This document shows positions 1 to 6,039 of a DNA stretch of 6,039 bases, in pieces. How positions within the stretch are numbered: the stretch's first letter is position 1; each line of letters opens with the position of its first letter. The notes beneath the pieces are model-generated. The model was not told the DNA's origin. It worked only from the letters and a program-made list of their open reading frames with translations, and did no database searches. The stretch lies in sequence record NC_007820.1. The stretch is one strand, 5' to 3'. The translations under genes were made by a program, and so were the position numbers. This stretch comes from Escherichia phage NC35.

Positions 1-26
1 TTGTTGACATTCCCTGAACCCTTATG

Positions 27-64
27 AGACTCTTGCTTCAACGAAACGAAGTAGGAGTCTTTTT
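27..64 (+). terminator. Hairpin (about 12 bp stem, 28-39 pairing with 48-59, two G-U pairs, 8-nt loop) followed by TTTTT; possible intrinsic terminator downstream of gene H on the circular genome. Its right arm contains the Shine-Dalgarno of ORF 65..433.
   Basis: Seen in sequence: GACTCTTGCTTC (28-39) is complementary to GAAGTAGGAGTC (48-59), followed by a T-run at 60-64. By analogy, phiX174 has a terminator after H. Stability not computed. Confidence 0.4.
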
Positions 65-433
65 ATGAAACCAGCTCATCGCCTTTATCATCCTGTTCTC
101 GGTTCTTGGCTGTTCAAGTGCCCTGTTTATATCCGTTATGAGCATCTTCATCATGGTCGTCTTATCAAGGTTCGTGCTGTTCGTGACCTTTCTCCGCGTC
201 AGCAGTTGATTGCTAACCCTAAAAATTGCTTTGACGTTGTCATTGCTGAGATTGATGTTACTCACCTTTCTGTTACTTTGTACGATTTTGAAGCTGAGGA
301 GTATGCTGAGTGTGATTCCGGTACTATGGAGCTTCTTCTTTCTCAGGTAAATTCTGGCGAGGTTATTCGCTCCTCCGAAGACCTGTTTGTTGATGTTGAC
401 GATATGGATTGGCTTTATGAAATTGCGGAGTAA
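65..433 (+). CDS. Hypothetical protein, 122 aa, with a basic N-terminal half and a strongly acidic C-terminal half; not part of the canonical phiX174 gene set.
   Basis: ATG at 65 preceded by AGGAG (53-57) with 7-nt spacing; stop TAA 431-433. Third codon positions are T-rich, as in the known phage genes here. Same strand as all other genes. No recognisable similarity to phiX174 proteins by eye. Confidence 0.5.
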   Translation: MKPAHRLYHPVLGSWLFKCPVYIRYEHLHHGRLIKVRAVRDLSPRQQLIANPKNCFDVVIAEIDVTHLSVTLYDFEAEEYAECDSGTMELLLSQVNSGEVIRSSEDLFVDVDDMDWLYEIAE

Positions 434-436
434 ATT

Positions 437-526
437 ATGGAAACTGTTATCGGAAAACTTATTGCTCTGGCTGTTGTTGCTCTTATGCTGTATGGAATTG
501 CCCGTTTGATTTGGAGGTTTCCGTGA
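437..526 (+). CDS. Small hydrophobic peptide, 29 aa (METVIGKLIALAVVALMLYGIARLIWRFP), possibly a single-pass membrane peptide.
   Basis: ATG at 437 with GGAG (427-430) 6 nt upstream, starting 3 nt after the ORF1 stop. Hydrophobic core flanked by K and R/W residues; T-rich third codon positions. Below the length cut-off of the supplied ORF track, so translated by hand. Confidence 0.35.
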   Translation: METVIGKLIALAVVALMLYGIARLIWRFP

Positions 527-699
527 AATATTTTAGTTTGGTAGATGAACATTATGCTTACTGCCCTGATACAAGGATTTTGCACATCACTCGTAGTCGT
601 GTTTCTGACCCTCGCTATGAGCGTCGCTTTCTTACTGATGAGGAGCATTTTGCACTTTTGGATTGGTTGAAAAATCGTCCAATATACATCAATTCTTGA
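523..699 (+). CDS. Hypothetical protein, 58 aa, GTG start overlapping the stop of the preceding small ORF (GTGA).
   Basis: GGAGG (513-517) lies 5 nt upstream of GTG 523; GTG 523-525 overlaps TGA 524-526 of ORF 437..526, suggesting translational coupling. Phage-like codon bias. The ORF track gives 511..699 from a TTG start with no Shine-Dalgarno; I prefer the GTG start. Confidence 0.35.
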   Translation: MKYFSLVDEHYAYCPDTRILHITRSRVSDPRYERRFLTDEEHFALLDWLKNRPIYINS

Positions 700-729
700 C
701 AGATAGTTTTACTACGAGGACTTTTTCGT

Positions 730-2214
730 ATGGCTACTGAAGTTTTCTCTGATGTTGTTAAGACCGTCTGGTCCCACGCTACGGCTAAGCATGCCCATCT
801 TCGTATGGCTGTTCAGGTTGATAACCGCAGTCGCCTTCTTTCTGACCTTGTTTATCAGTTGGAAAAACGCCTTTCTGAAGAGACTCATTTAGATGATGAG
901 ACTCTTGCTGTTTATGAATCTCAGACCGCTCTTCTGGAAGACCATATGGCTCTGGTTCGGAAGTGTGCTGCCCAACTTGATAATAGTAACACTATAGACC
1001 ACCGTACCCCTTTGGATGCCGAATGTGTTTTCCTGTTTGAAATGATTTGCCCAGGTGTTCGCTACGGTAAAACGTTGAATTCTCTTTGGTCTAAGTATGT
1101 TGCTCAATGGCCTGAGAAGTTAATTCGTCAAGAGTTAGACATGGTTAAGCCTTTATCCTTTAAGGATGAGGTTGCTAAGTACATGGAGAAGATGCAGGAA
1201 AAAACACGTAAAAATCGCATGACTCAAAAAGTAATTAATGATATGCGTATTGCTCACCAAAAGGGCTGGTTTTTCGTATTTGATACGTTGACACTTGCTG
1301 ATGACCGTTTGCAGGCATTTAATGAAAACCCCAATGCTCTTCGTGATTATTTCAGGACTGTTGGTCGAGCTGTTCTGCGCGCTGAAGGTCGTTCGGTTAA
1401 GGATTCCTACAACGACTGCTATCGCTATCTTTGTGTGCCGGAGTTTGGAGGTCAGCACGGTCGTCTTCATTGGCACGTTGTGCATATGGTGCGGACTCTT
1501 CCTTTGGGAAGTCACGACCCTAATTTCGGTCGCAAGGTACGTAATTATCGCCAGATTAACTCGTTCCGTGGCATGTGGCCTTATGGCTTCACGCAACCGA
1601 TAGCTGTACGCTATCAACATGATGCTTATTCTCGCAAAGGTTGGTTGTGGCCTGTTGACAAATCAGGTAAAGCAATGCAGAGTAAGCCCTATCAGGCGGT
1701 CGCATGGTATGTGACCAAGTATGTAGCCAAGCAATCTGACCAGCGTCAGAAAGCTATTACTGAGAGACAAAAAAAATGCAAGAATCCACTTATGGCAATC
1801 TGTCTGAAAAAGGAATTCAGAGTTCGCAGCAGCCGGAAGCTCGGAATGGAGTTACCTTCGATGGCGCATCTCAGCAACAAAGTGCTTCTGGAACTGAGCC
1901 GAATCAGCTTCGATTCCAGTCCTCTGTATCAGATAGTGAAAGAGAACGCCAAAAAGCAATTGACCTTGAACATCGGCGCACTGCCTTTGCACGTCATTTT
2001 GGATGTGCGCCCGGAAGTGAGAAGTATGTTGAAAAATATCCGTCGTTTGATGAAAAAGACACCCGAGTTCAATTGGCAGAGTTCTATCGCTTCAATGACG
2101 GTCACCTTAAAAAATGGGGATATTTCTGATGAAGCACGTCAATACATTATTGATGCAGGAATTACGCCTTTTGATTTGCGAGCTAAAGCGACTCAAACTT
2201 TCGGCGGTAAGTGA
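730..2214 (+). CDS. A: Replication initiation protein A (rolling-circle HUH endonuclease), 494 aa.
   Basis: Clear similarity to phiX174 protein A across the conserved core (FVFDTLTLADDRL, NPNALRDYFR, GRLHWHVVH HUH-type motif, YVTKYVAK two-tyrosine active-site motif, C-terminal DISDE...AGIT...GGK). GAGGA (716-720) precedes ATG 730. An in-frame stop at 697-699 rules out a longer N-terminus. Confidence 0.95.
   Translation: MATEVFSDVVKTVWSHATAKHAHLRMAVQVDNRSRLLSDLVYQLEKRLSEETHLDDETLAVYESQTALLEDHMALVRKCAAQLDNSNTIDHRTPLDAECVFLFEMICPGVRYGKTLNSLWSKYVAQWPEKLIRQELDMVKPLSFKDEVAKYMEKMQEKTRKNRMTQKVINDMRIAHQKGWFFVFDTLTLADDRLQAFNENPNALRDYFRTVGRAVLRAEGRSVKDSYNDCYRYLCVPEFGGQHGRLHWHVVHMVRTLPLGSHDPNFGRKVRNYRQINSFRGMWPYGFTQPIAVRYQHDAYSRKGWLWPVDKSGKAMQSKPYQAVAWYVTKYVAKQSDQRQKAITERQKKCKNPLMAICLKKEFRVRSSRKLGMELPSMAHLSNKVLLELSRISFDSSPLYQIVKENAKKQLTLNIGALPLHVILDVRPEVRSMLKNIRRLMKKTPEFNWQSSIASMTVTLKNGDISDEARQYIIDAGITPFDLRAKATQTFGGK
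973..1002 (+). other. Viral (+) strand origin of rolling-circle replication, a 30-nt conserved element inside gene A; predicted nick between G979 and A980.
   Basis: CAACTTGATAATAGTAACACTATAGACCAC matches the phiX174 origin 30-mer (CAACTTG/ATATTAATAACACTATAGACCAC, recalled from memory) at 27 of 30 positions, in the equivalent place within A (encoding ...LDNSNTIDHR...). Confidence 0.85.
1219..2214 (+). CDS. A*: A* protein, an in-frame internal restart of gene A (332 aa), inferred by homology to phiX174.
   Basis: Internal ATG at 1219 corresponds to the phiX174 A* initiator position just upstream of the conserved HADGW/HQKGW segment. No strong Shine-Dalgarno seen; call rests on synteny only. Confidence 0.45.
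   Translation: MTQKVINDMRIAHQKGWFFVFDTLTLADDRLQAFNENPNALRDYFRTVGRAVLRAEGRSVKDSYNDCYRYLCVPEFGGQHGRLHWHVVHMVRTLPLGSHDPNFGRKVRNYRQINSFRGMWPYGFTQPIAVRYQHDAYSRKGWLWPVDKSGKAMQSKPYQAVAWYVTKYVAKQSDQRQKAITERQKKCKNPLMAICLKKEFRVRSSRKLGMELPSMAHLSNKVLLELSRISFDSSPLYQIVKENAKKQLTLNIGALPLHVILDVRPEVRSMLKNIRRLMKKTPEFNWQSSIASMTVTLKNGDISDEARQYIIDAGITPFDLRAKATQTFGGK
1776..2129 (+). CDS. B: Internal scaffolding protein B, 117 aa, encoded within gene A in a different frame.
   Basis: C-terminal similarity to phiX174 B (AEFYRF...GYF terminus), acidic and Gln-rich N-terminal half, nested in A as in phiX174. Confidence 0.9.
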   Translation: MQESTYGNLSEKGIQSSQQPEARNGVTFDGASQQQSASGTEPNQLRFQSSVSDSERERQKAIDLEHRRTAFARHFGCAPGSEKYVEKYPSFDEKDTRVQLAEFYRFNDGHLKKWGYF

Positions 2215-2490: not shown

Positions 2491-2949
2491 ATGTCTAATC
2501 TTGTTGCTACTGATGTTAACTTTGCTACTTCTGTTGCTGCTCTGAAGATGCTTCAGGCTTCTGCTGTTCTGGATATTACCGAGGAGGATTTTGATTTCCT
2601 GACTGGTGATAAAATTTGGATTGCTACTGACCGCAACCGTGCGCGTCGCTGTGTTGAGGCTTGTGTCTATGGAACGCTGGACTTTGTGGGATACCCTCGC
2701 TTTCCTGCTCCTGTTGAGTTTATTGCTGCCGTCATTGCTTATTATGTTCATCCCGTCAACATTCAGACGGCCTGCCTCATCATGGAAGGCGCTGAGTTTA
2801 CGGAAAACATTGTTAATGGCGTCGAGCGTCCGGTTAAAGCCGCTGAGCTCTTCGCGTACACCTTGCGTGTTAAGGCCGGATTCAAAGAAACGGTTCTGAG
2901 CGCTGAAGAGAATGCTCGCCAGAAACTTCGTGCAAGTGGAGTAATGTAA
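2491..2949 (+). CDS. D: External scaffolding protein D, 152 aa.
   Basis: Near-identity to phiX174 D over most of its length (for example CVEACVYGTLDFVGYPRFPAPVEFIAAVIAYYVHPVNIQTACLIMEGAEFTEN). AGGAG (2480-2484) 6 nt upstream of the ATG. Confidence 0.96.
   Translation: MSNLVATDVNFATSVAALKMLQASAVLDITEEDFDFLTGDKIWIATDRNRARRCVEACVYGTLDFVGYPRFPAPVEFIAAVIAYYVHPVNIQTACLIMEGAEFTENIVNGVERPVKAAELFAYTLRVKAGFKETVLSAEENARQKLRASGVM
2669..2899 (+). CDS. E: Lysis protein E, 76 aa, encoded within D in the +1 frame.
   Basis: MERWTLWDTLAFLLLLSLLLPSLLIMFIPSTF matches the phiX174 E N-terminal transmembrane domain (MVRWTLWDTLAFLLLLSLLLPSLLIMFIPSTF). The start is taken at the Met aligning with phiX174 E, not the upstream ORF-track start at 2606. 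Confidence 0.8.
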   Translation: MERWTLWDTLAFLLLLSLLLPSLLIMFIPSTFRRPASSWKALSLRKTLLMASSVRLKPLSSSRTPCVLRPDSKKRF

Positions 2950-3025: not shown

Positions 3026-3030
3026 TTGAT

Positions 3031-3044
3031 GGGGCTTCGGCCCC
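3031..3044 (+). terminator. J-F intergenic hairpin GGGGC(UUCG)GCCCC; likely terminator or mRNA-stabilising stem-loop.
   Basis: Perfect 5-bp G/C stem closing a C(UUCG)G tetraloop, immediately followed by TATAAGGAT (the F Shine-Dalgarno). phiX174 has a J-F intergenic hairpin at the equivalent position. Confidence 0.5.
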
Positions 3045-4343: not shown

Positions 4344-4349
4344 TTATGT

Positions 4350-4363
4350 GGGGCTTCGGCCCC
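4350..4363 (+). terminator. F-G intergenic hairpin GGGGC(UUCG)GCCCC, identical to the J-F hairpin.
   Basis: Same 14-nt stem-loop as at 3031-3044, again followed by TTAAGGAT (the G Shine-Dalgarno). Confidence 0.5.
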
Positions 4364-5061: not shown

Positions 5062-6039
5062 ATGTTAGGTGCCGTTGTAGGTGGTATTGCTTCAGCCTTA
5101 GCCGGTGGAGCCGCCTCTAAGTTATTTGGTGGTAAGTCTGCCCCTCAAGCCGCTACAGAGTCCGCTGGCCTATCTAATGGTCAAGGTGTTATTGGTATGG
5201 ACCAAGATGCCGGTATTCAGTCGGCTATTCAGGGTTCAAATGTCCCAAATGGTCAGATTCCCGCCCCCACGCAGACTGGTGGTGTTATGTCTGATGCTAA
5301 AAACATGATTAAGAATGCTGGTAAGGATTTGCTTGATGGTGTCATGACTGCTGGTAGTGACCGAGTCAAACAAGCTTTGGTTGATGGATTGAGTGGTAAT
5401 AATGCAAAGAAACAAGGACAAGCAACCCGTGATTACTTGGCTGCAGCCTTCCCTGAACTCAATGCATGGGAGCGTGCTGGAGCTGGTGCTTCCGGCGCCG
5501 GCTTGGAATCTTCCAGCCAGGACCAACAGAAAGAATTGATGCGAATGCAGTTGGACAACCAGAAAGATATTGCGAAGATGCAGATGCAGAATAATTTGCA
5601 GATTGCAGGTATTCAGTCCGCTACTTCTCGTCAAAATACGAAGGATTCTGTTTATGCACAGAATGAGATGCTTCAGTACAATCAGCGTGAGTCGCAAGCG
5701 CGTGTTGAGTCCATCCTCGCCAACACTGACCTTACGGTTAAACAGGCCACCCATGAAATCATGAGAATGGCCCTTACTCGTGCTCAGGAGACTGGTCAAC
5801 ATTTAACTAACTCTCAGATTATGGCATTGGAGAAAAAGGTTTATGCAGAAATCGGAAAAATTCATCAAGATACTCAAAACTCTCGCTATGGTAGCTCTCA
5901 AGTTACTGCTGCGGCGAAAGATGTTACAAATATGATTTCTGATGCTGTTGGCGGTTTTGCCGACTGGGCTTCCCAGCAATGGAATTCCTTCTTTAAGGAT
6001 GGTAAGTCTAATGGTATTCCTCTTAATACCAGAAAATAA
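5062..6039 (+). CDS. H: DNA pilot (minor spike) protein H, 325 aa.
   Basis: Strong similarity to phiX174 H: N-terminal glycine-rich hydrophobic segment (GGIASALAGGA-SKLFGG), central TRDYLAAAFPELNAWERAGA, and AGIQSATSRQNTKD-VYAQNEML. AAGGAG (5046-5051) upstream; stop TAA at 6037-6039 is the window end. Confidence 0.96.
   Translation: MLGAVVGGIASALAGGAASKLFGGKSAPQAATESAGLSNGQGVIGMDQDAGIQSAIQGSNVPNGQIPAPTQTGGVMSDAKNMIKNAGKDLLDGVMTAGSDRVKQALVDGLSGNNAKKQGQATRDYLAAAFPELNAWERAGAGASGAGLESSSQDQQKELMRMQLDNQKDIAKMQMQNNLQIAGIQSATSRQNTKDSVYAQNEMLQYNQRESQARVESILANTDLTVKQATHEIMRMALTRAQETGQHLTNSQIMALEKKVYAEIGKIHQDTQNSRYGSSQVTAAAKDVTNMISDAVGGFADWASQQWNSFFKDGKSNGIPLNTRK

Follow-up and report, generated by a model that had tools for sequence, protein, structure and literature searches.

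What is encoded in the long stretch between genes H and A of the alpha3-like microviruses? The question is raised here by Escherichia phage NC35 (NC_007820.1), whose 6,039-nucleotide (nt) sequence was analysed at full length and is called the window below. Positions 1-729 of the window form the long H-A intergenic region typical of Alphatrevirus, whereas the H-A spacing in phiX174 is only 63 nt. This region holds a pair of open reading frames (ORFs) at 437-699, ORF2 of 29 amino acids (aa) and ORF3 of 58 aa, in which the stop codon of the first overlaps the start codon of the second. Megablast of the whole window gave identities of 94% with NC3, 93% with ID32 and WA13 and 86% with alpha3, and the window is assigned as a complete alpha3-like microvirus genome (Microviridae, Bullavirinae, Alphatrevirus). 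We propose, with a probability of roughly 0.6, that ORF2 and ORF3 are genuine genus-specific accessory genes, the last two of a tightly packed ORF1-ORF2-ORF3 cassette bounded by the hairpin after gene H and the promoter of gene A.

H-A regions were gathered from 13 complete isolate genomes, one dog-faeces assembly and IMG/VR, Logan, ENA and JGI metagenome contigs, giving a conservation sample of 47 loci that represent 33 distinct H-A sequences. In all 33, uninterrupted frames are present for ORF2 (28-30 aa) and ORF3 (58 aa), and they are still intact where the amino acid divergence of ORF3 reaches 19% (P0007). ORF3 is longer, at 70 aa, in phiK, the record of which has TTGGCA in place of TTGACA; the stop codon there reads TGG and the -35 element of gene A is weakened. 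This stop loss may be an old sequencing error. The nucleotide diversity of ORF2 (0.075) and ORF3 (0.089) is as low as that of the essential genes C and D, and far under that of F, G and H.

The junction between the two frames takes three forms. In the first (..GGAGGTT(T/C)CCGTGA), ORF3 starts with GTG and overlaps ORF2 by 4 nt. In the second (..AGGA(C/T)T(T/C)TGA(A/G)ATGA), the 4-nt overlap contains an ATG start, AGGA takes the place of GGAGG and ORF2 has 30 aa ending in RTLR/K. In the third, found in ID32 (..AGGACTTGAAATG), the arrangement is TGA-A-ATG: a single nt separates the stop from the ATG, and ORF2 has 28 aa. All unique sequences but those of the ID32 type have the 4-nt overlap, as either GTGA or ATGA. 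The stop of ORF2 overlaps or abuts the start of ORF3, and this arrangement is kept despite sequence change at the junction: both frames stay open through indels of 2 nt and 3 nt, and GTG and ATG are exchanged at one aligned position. Frames that survive indels together with a GTG/ATG switch are as expected of a real co-translated pair. Judged by this conservation, ORF2 and ORF3 are genuine conserved features, beyond what chance would leave.

Shine-Dalgarno (SD) cores lie 4-10 nt upstream of 19 of the 262 plus-strand ATG and GTG codons in the window (7%), and ORF1, the frame preceding ORF2, has one, as do ORF2 and ORF3. The GGAG of ORF2 is kept in the alignment, with GGGG and GGAA variants in single sequences. 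The first ORF3 start in a mechanical ORF list, TTG511, exists in the window alone, where it was made by a private CGG-to-TGG change; read from the alignment, the conserved start of ORF3 is GTG523, or ATG in some relatives. The private amino acid changes of the window are R26W in ORF2 (512-514) and T54I in ORF3 (682-684). The initial annotation of this DNA had described a transmembrane-like micro-ORF coupled to a 58-aa ORF; re-reading of the sequence bore out its coordinates, the GTGA overlap and the GGAGG placed 5 nt before the GTG, and in relatives the overlap and SD are conserved with both frames intact. It had missed the three-ORF cassette, of which the pair makes up the distal two-thirds.

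In ORF3, the pairwise ratio of nonsynonymous to synonymous polymorphism (pN/pS) is 0.18 in frame and 0.91 and 1.94 out of frame. Parsimony changes are distributed 48/19/133 over the first, second and third codon positions, and diversity by position is 0.056/0.024/0.188. By these measures ORF3 is under strong purifying selection, and it is very probably a gene. These observations also bear on whether both ORFs are open merely by chance within a non-coding, T-rich spacer, an explanation that deserves next to no credence and is effectively refuted for ORF3. Hydrophobic open segments are frequent in the genome, and the RefSeq annotations of the genus list nothing in the H-A region; but a spacer would hardly leave both frames intact in 33 unique sequences despite the divergence seen in ORF3, nor would it account for codon-periodic substitutions, three SD motifs and a junction kept through indels.

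An AlphaFold2 model of the ORF3 product, built from a nine-sequence alignment, has a predicted local distance difference test (pLDDT) score of 82 and comprises four strands followed by a C-terminal helix; the protein is predicted to be soluble. Searches of Pfam, PHROGs and NCBIfam gave no significant match to ORF3 (best PHROG E = 0.43), and sequence-profile comparison with PDB reached E = 0.04 at best. In BFVD the ortholog from phage Lilleven was the sole match. A word-indexed search returned nine clusters, all on contigs of ~6.1 kb or less, and an exhaustive profile search of 1.84 billion representatives returned the cluster of ORF3 itself and one weak repeat-protein match. This weak match, to helicase-associated-domain-like repeats in P0029, was discounted, as it was judged to reflect a shared amphipathic-helix motif. 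Similarly, tblastn against 50,697 phage records recovered alphatreviruses only, and sequence, profile and fold searches found no ORF3 homolog outside the genus.

ORF2 has a codon-usage log-likelihood ratio (LLR) of +8.2 bits and T at 52% of its third positions, close to the 50% of genes A, D, F, G and H. Among 14 genomes no diversity (0.000) is seen at its second codon position, and replacements in its core all fall within I/V/L/F/A/S/T, being either hydrophobic for hydrophobic or among A, S and T; as a test of selection on hydrophobicity this is weaker than it appears, because first-position changes in NTN codons are conservative automatically. In codons 1-7 polymorphism is mainly at third positions, and the viable isolate Lilleven has three third-position changes, all synonymous in ORF2. 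Further, ORF2 has been predicted by gene callers on many independent metagenomic contigs, and records of its consensus form come from 30 contigs. ORF2 is probably translated, and its product is predicted to be membrane-inserted with somewhat better than even confidence. No match to ORF2 was found in Pfam-A at E <= 1; the best PHROG match, at E = 0.03, was non-significant, and NCBIfam gave nothing significant. With tblastn against the phage collection, alphatreviruses alone were recovered, all other matches having E >= 3.

Several observations weigh against the pair being two accessory genes of a cassette, and most of them concern ORF2. Only 15 residues (L8-A22) between K7 and R23 form its uncharged run, whereas a bilayer-spanning segment takes about 19 or more; its best 19-residue Kyte-Doolittle mean (KD19) is 2.34. 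Hydrophobic open segments are not rare in a genome so rich in T, with 15 of the 143 segments of at least 19 aa reaching a KD19 of at least 2.0, so the hydrophobicity of ORF2 alone carries little weight. Scans of the window and of NC3 found no promoter-like site for the cassette, and Pfam, PHROGs, NCBIfam, PDB, BFVD and profile searches gave no homolog or fold match that hints at function. The substitution pattern of the core is also not the one expected of the ORF2 frame. Diversity by position in codons 8-22 is 0.124/0.000/0.019, with third positions near-frozen; non-singleton polymorphic sites number 6/0/0 by position in 26 sequences and 6/1/0 in all 33, and parsimony changes 26/3/4. The pN/pS of ORF2 is 0.40, whereas that of the +1 frame is 0.18. 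The frozen third positions of ORF2 fit coding in the +1 frame, and on these counts the substitution pattern does not single out the ORF2 frame.

The +1 frame (ATG417..TGA509) may itself be translated, either replacing ORF2 or overprinted with it as in the D/E, A/B and A/K pairs. It is open in 26 of the 26 unique sequences checked, the common polymorphisms of the ORF2 core sit at its third position, and overprinting is typical of the virus family. Its translation is nevertheless rather improbable, since ATG417 lacks an SD, the fraction of T at third positions is 0.10 and the codon LLR is -13.8 bits. Its N-terminal half undergoes radical changes (R/W, L/S, S/L, E/G) where ORF1 and ORF2 change silently, the three changes of Lilleven read in it as S to L, L to P (within a Leu run) and P to L, and its unbroken hydrophobic run is only 12 residues. 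Known dual coding in the same genomes also looks different from ORF2: in the D/E and A/B overlaps, the third position of the primary frame is the most variable (0.135 and 0.111).

A second explanation of the frozen sites is that ORF2 is non-functional as a protein and that 437-505 is a cis-acting nucleic-acid element, involved in single-stranded DNA replication, membrane attachment or packaging or acting as an element of the ORF3 mRNA, with ORF3 being real and using its own SD. Third-position variation in the preferred T-ending codons (GTT, GCT, ATT, CTT, ACT) is seen in 1 of 12 cases in ORF2, as compared with 177 of 293 in other genes of the same 14 genomes (Fisher p = 4e-4) and 31 of 64 in the slow gene A (p = 0.011). 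Codon preference is thus no explanation, and another constraint overlaps ORF2. The viral-strand origin within gene A offers a positive control, internal to these genomes, for a cis element: sliding windows gave a third-position diversity of 0.00-0.07 in ORF2 (codons 1-20), as low as the 0.02-0.05 at the origin (near 970-1005). A cis-acting 'reduction' sequence is known from the H-A intergenic region of phiX174. The variation in ORF2, however, is strictly period-three, with a variable first position (0.124) and an invariant second, which is not expected of a sequence element. RNA and single-stranded DNA folds are no better than those of shuffled sequences (z = -0.16 and +0.99), no Rfam match was found at ORF2 and no repeat of the stretch elsewhere in the genome, and a cis element would leave the conserved SD, ATG and stop/start junction without explanation. 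We consider this alternative improbable. A second dip in synonymous diversity (0.06-0.11) lies within ORF3 at 616-650, approximately codons 33-44 (FLTDEEHFALLDW).

The frozen third positions lower confidence that ORF2 alone accounts for the conservation. It is conceivable, if on balance doubtful, that 437-505 does two jobs, encoding the ORF2 membrane peptide and having a second function that fixes the synonymous sites, namely a +1-frame product or a cis-acting signal for replication, packaging or regulation. If true, either of these would add a new kind of functional element to what is described for a model phage subfamily.

The initial annotation had also credited ORF2 with a hydrophobic core of about 20 residues, which the 15-residue uncharged run does not support, and had regarded it as a membrane-active small protein additional to protein E. 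Its interpretation holds in part: the genuine conserved pair, the conserved overlap and SD and the separate location of E (2669..2899) stand, while the core is shorter, the substitution pattern does not favour the ORF2 frame, and roles in lysis timing, exclusion or toxicity, like membrane insertion itself, are speculative. E resembles ORF2 in being a small peptide of the same virus subfamily in which a single hydrophobic helix near the N-terminus, predicted in the case of ORF2, precedes a basic region. It differs in being overprinted within gene D and in having a longer helix (KD19 2.79). The helix of protein E carries a functionally essential proline; ORF2 has no proline in its core and no match to the Pfam family Microvir_lysis, occupies the H-A locus and is paired with a downstream gene. 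From these differences, ORF2 is unrelated to E and is not a member of the E family.

ORF1 completes the cassette. Its diversity by codon position is 0.143/0.098/0.314, by which it is clearly coding and under purifying selection. The AlphaFold2 model of its product has a pLDDT of 90.8. Pfam, PHROG and NCBIfam searches gave no match to ORF1 and PDB neither a sequence nor a fold match, and its homologs are confined to alphatreviruses. The N-terminal half of ORF1 is basic and near-invariant and the C-terminal half is very acidic (18 D/E vs 1 K/R) and hypervariable; a pattern of this kind is known from proteins that act in host interaction or anti-defence. In some metagenomic relatives (L039, L040) ORF1 is extended at its N-terminus by 32 aa. 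In addition, the 1992 alpha3 record (NC_001330) and the St-1 record each lack 1 nt in ORF1, which shifts its frame. Resequenced alpha3 (DQ085810.2) has an intact ORF1; for alpha3, at least, the frameshift is thus an error of sequencing, and such frameshifted records may have helped to keep the ORFs out of reference annotations. A read-through fusion of ORF1 and ORF2, which share a frame and are separated by TAA and one codon, was judged unlikely, given the conserved TAA and an SD that belongs to ORF2 itself. Paralogy of ORF1 and ORF3, considered in view of overlapping fold hits, was rejected at a profile-profile probability of 0.9%.

If ORF2 and ORF3 are accessory genes of this cassette, their expression may be pictured as follows. 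The terminators of phiX174 are leaky. Given this leakiness, and with no promoter-like site found before the cassette, we infer that it is expressed from late read-through transcripts, of which it would form the distal end, reached by read-through of a leaky hairpin after H. Ribosomes finishing ORF1 would restart 3 nt downstream at ORF2, and those ending at the ORF2 UGA would restart on the overlapping GUG or AUG of ORF3, whose SD lies inside ORF2, such that the ORF2 and ORF3 products would be made together. The ORF2 product would be a single short inner-membrane helix with its N-terminus out and, by the positive-inside rule, the basic residues of its tail (R23, R/W26, R27) on the cytoplasmic side, and ORF3 may be its small soluble cytoplasmic partner. 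We would guess that the two products have a dispensable accessory role at the inner membrane, and that exclusion of superinfecting phages or modulation of a host envelope protein is likelier than lysis, which protein E already supplies by inhibiting MraY. Any specific function proposed for the pair is, however, unlikely to be the right one. As a possible coupling switch, an 8-bp RNA pairing between the ORF2 and ORF3 starts in the minimum free energy fold of the window was rejected: the fold is no better than those of shuffled sequences and, as read from the alignment, the pairing is mismatched in most relatives and absent from the second junction type.

Table 1. Positions of the H-A open reading frames, their initiation signals and neighbouring features in the window
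Feature	Position	Strand	Remarks
ORF1, 122 aa	65..433	+	Stop 3 nt before ORF2 ATG; same frame as ORF2; first cassette gene
ORF2, 29 aa, hydrophobic peptide METVIGKLIALAVVALMLYGIARLIWRFP	437..526	+	ATG start, TGA stop
ORF3, 58 aa	523..699	+	GTG start, TGA stop
GTGA stop/start overlap, ORF2/ORF3	523..526	+	Read in sequence
SD core GGAG of ORF2	427..430	+	Within last ORF1 codons, 6 nt before ATG437
SD GGAGG of ORF3	513..517	+	Within ORF2 codons 26-27, 5 nt before GTG523
Alternative +1-frame ORF, MKLRSKLWKLLSENLLLWLLLLLCCMELPV	417..509	+	ATG417..TGA509, overlaps ORF2
Gene A	730..2214	.	By comparison with NC3 annotation
Gene H	5062..6039	.	By comparison with NC3 annotation
Terminator-like hairpin	26..61	+	Directly after gene H; 3' arm holds ORF1 SD (AGGAG, 53-57)
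TTGACA, -35 of gene A promoter in relatives	696..701	+	ORF3 stop codon (697-699) inside
Junction of window-specific 29-nt deletion	702..703	.	Present as 29 nt in all other unique sequences

Both flanks of the cassette carry control elements (Table 1). On the gene A side, the promoter of relatives is TTGACA-N18-TATATT, matched at 11 of 12 positions in NC3, and is followed by a GCCCTC..GAGGGC-T5 hairpin that contains the gene A SD. The same order of promoter, hairpin and SD precedes gene A in phiX174, where the mapped transcription start falls within the hairpin. With the 29 nt absent from the window (ACCTTTAAAATACCCTCTATATTGCCCTC in NC3), gene A loses its -10 box, and the hairpin in which its SD is sequestered loses the 5' arm; a promoter scan found no promoter-like site left in positions 1-800 of the window. 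The deletion junction was not found in IMG/VR or JGI metagenome contigs, and the deletion could be a genuine variant or an assembly artefact. If it is real, gene A would rely on read-through transcription and its SD would be permanently exposed.

On the gene H side, positions 1-64 of the window hold TTGACA (4-9) and the hairpin with its T-run; the 3' arm contains an SD, and the ATG of ORF1 follows. No acceptable -10 hexamer was found after this TTGACA. The hairpin with its T-run has a terminator-like score in NC3; in the window, where the stem is the same and the T-run one base shorter, it was not called by the terminator scan. Because this stretch repeats the promoter-hairpin-SD order found before gene A in relatives and phiX174, it resembles a duplicated control region, which suggests that the cassette was inserted with, or is flanked by, a duplicate of the gene A control region. 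An exact 14-nt direct repeat (ATGAGACTCTTGCT) occurs at 24-37, in the 5' arm of the hairpin after H, and at 896-909 within gene A; approximately 0.07 such repeats would be expected by chance in 6 kb.

Two further features were observed outside the H-A region. A 15-nt palindromic hairpin (TGGGGCTTCGGCCCC) is present in identical copies at 3030-3044, after gene J, and 4349-4363, after gene F, and these are presumably the TJ and TF terminators. NC29 has ~190 extra nt between genes C and D (2480-2712 in NC29) as compared with its relatives.

The pair resembles known systems in its geometry and size. Overlaps of the NTGA type give termination-reinitiation coupling in bacterial and phage operons. 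Like such junctions, for example in the trp operon, the ORF2/ORF3 junction has a conserved 4-nt GTGA or ATGA overlap with the downstream SD in the last upstream codons. It differs in that coupling is here deduced from geometry, that ID32 has a 1-nt gap and that the strong SD of ORF3 would allow independent initiation. T4 Imm and Sp are small membrane proteins that exclude superinfecting phages by acting on the host envelope, and KdpF is a 29-aa bacterial mini-protein. ORF2 is like them in size class, in its predicted single hydrophobic helix and in being lineage-restricted and probably accessory, but it has no sequence similarity to them and is predicted to have a dedicated soluble-partner gene.

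Direct orthologs are on record in Lilleven (MK629527), where QBZ71503.1 (29 aa, 90% identical) and QBZ71504.1 (58 aa, 86-88%) have the same overlap and position. The Lilleven record annotates all three H-A ORFs as hypothetical proteins, by automatic annotation, and is the only GenBank record to do so; the Lilleven paper has no discussion of ORF1-3. Earlier traces exist in the dog-faeces record, in which 'similar to hypothetical protein' is marked in the H-A region, and in a 1980s alpha3 H-gene record (M25640), in which ribosome-binding sites are marked at the corresponding positions. All RefSeq records of the genus list genes A to K only, and Bullavirinae are usually described as having exactly eleven genes. 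No paper discussing ORF1-3 was found in the literature searched, and discussion in older papers (Kodaira 1992; Rokyta 2006) is possible. A 2026 description of a new alphatrevirus likewise leaves out the H-A ORFs (PMC13029530). ORF2 and ORF3 probably form a genus-restricted, uncharacterised accessory gene pair that is not wholly new to databases.

The completeness of the phiX174 annotation has been tested by synthesis (PMC6883844). The genomes of Bullavirinae are textbook examples of being 'fully annotated', yet between H and A the alpha3-like genus appears to hold ~640 nt (65-699) of coding sequence that is conserved and under selection. In practical terms the stakes are modest, as no homologs of the pair were found elsewhere, and the biology is probably ordinary, that of genes overlooked in a model phage group; the synonymous-constraint element in ORF2 is flagged as a real oddity. 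As genes, ORF1-3 would change the gene count of Alphatrevirus and would provide three small genes, easy to knock out, as candidates for accessory roles in exclusion, host range or anti-defence, for example.

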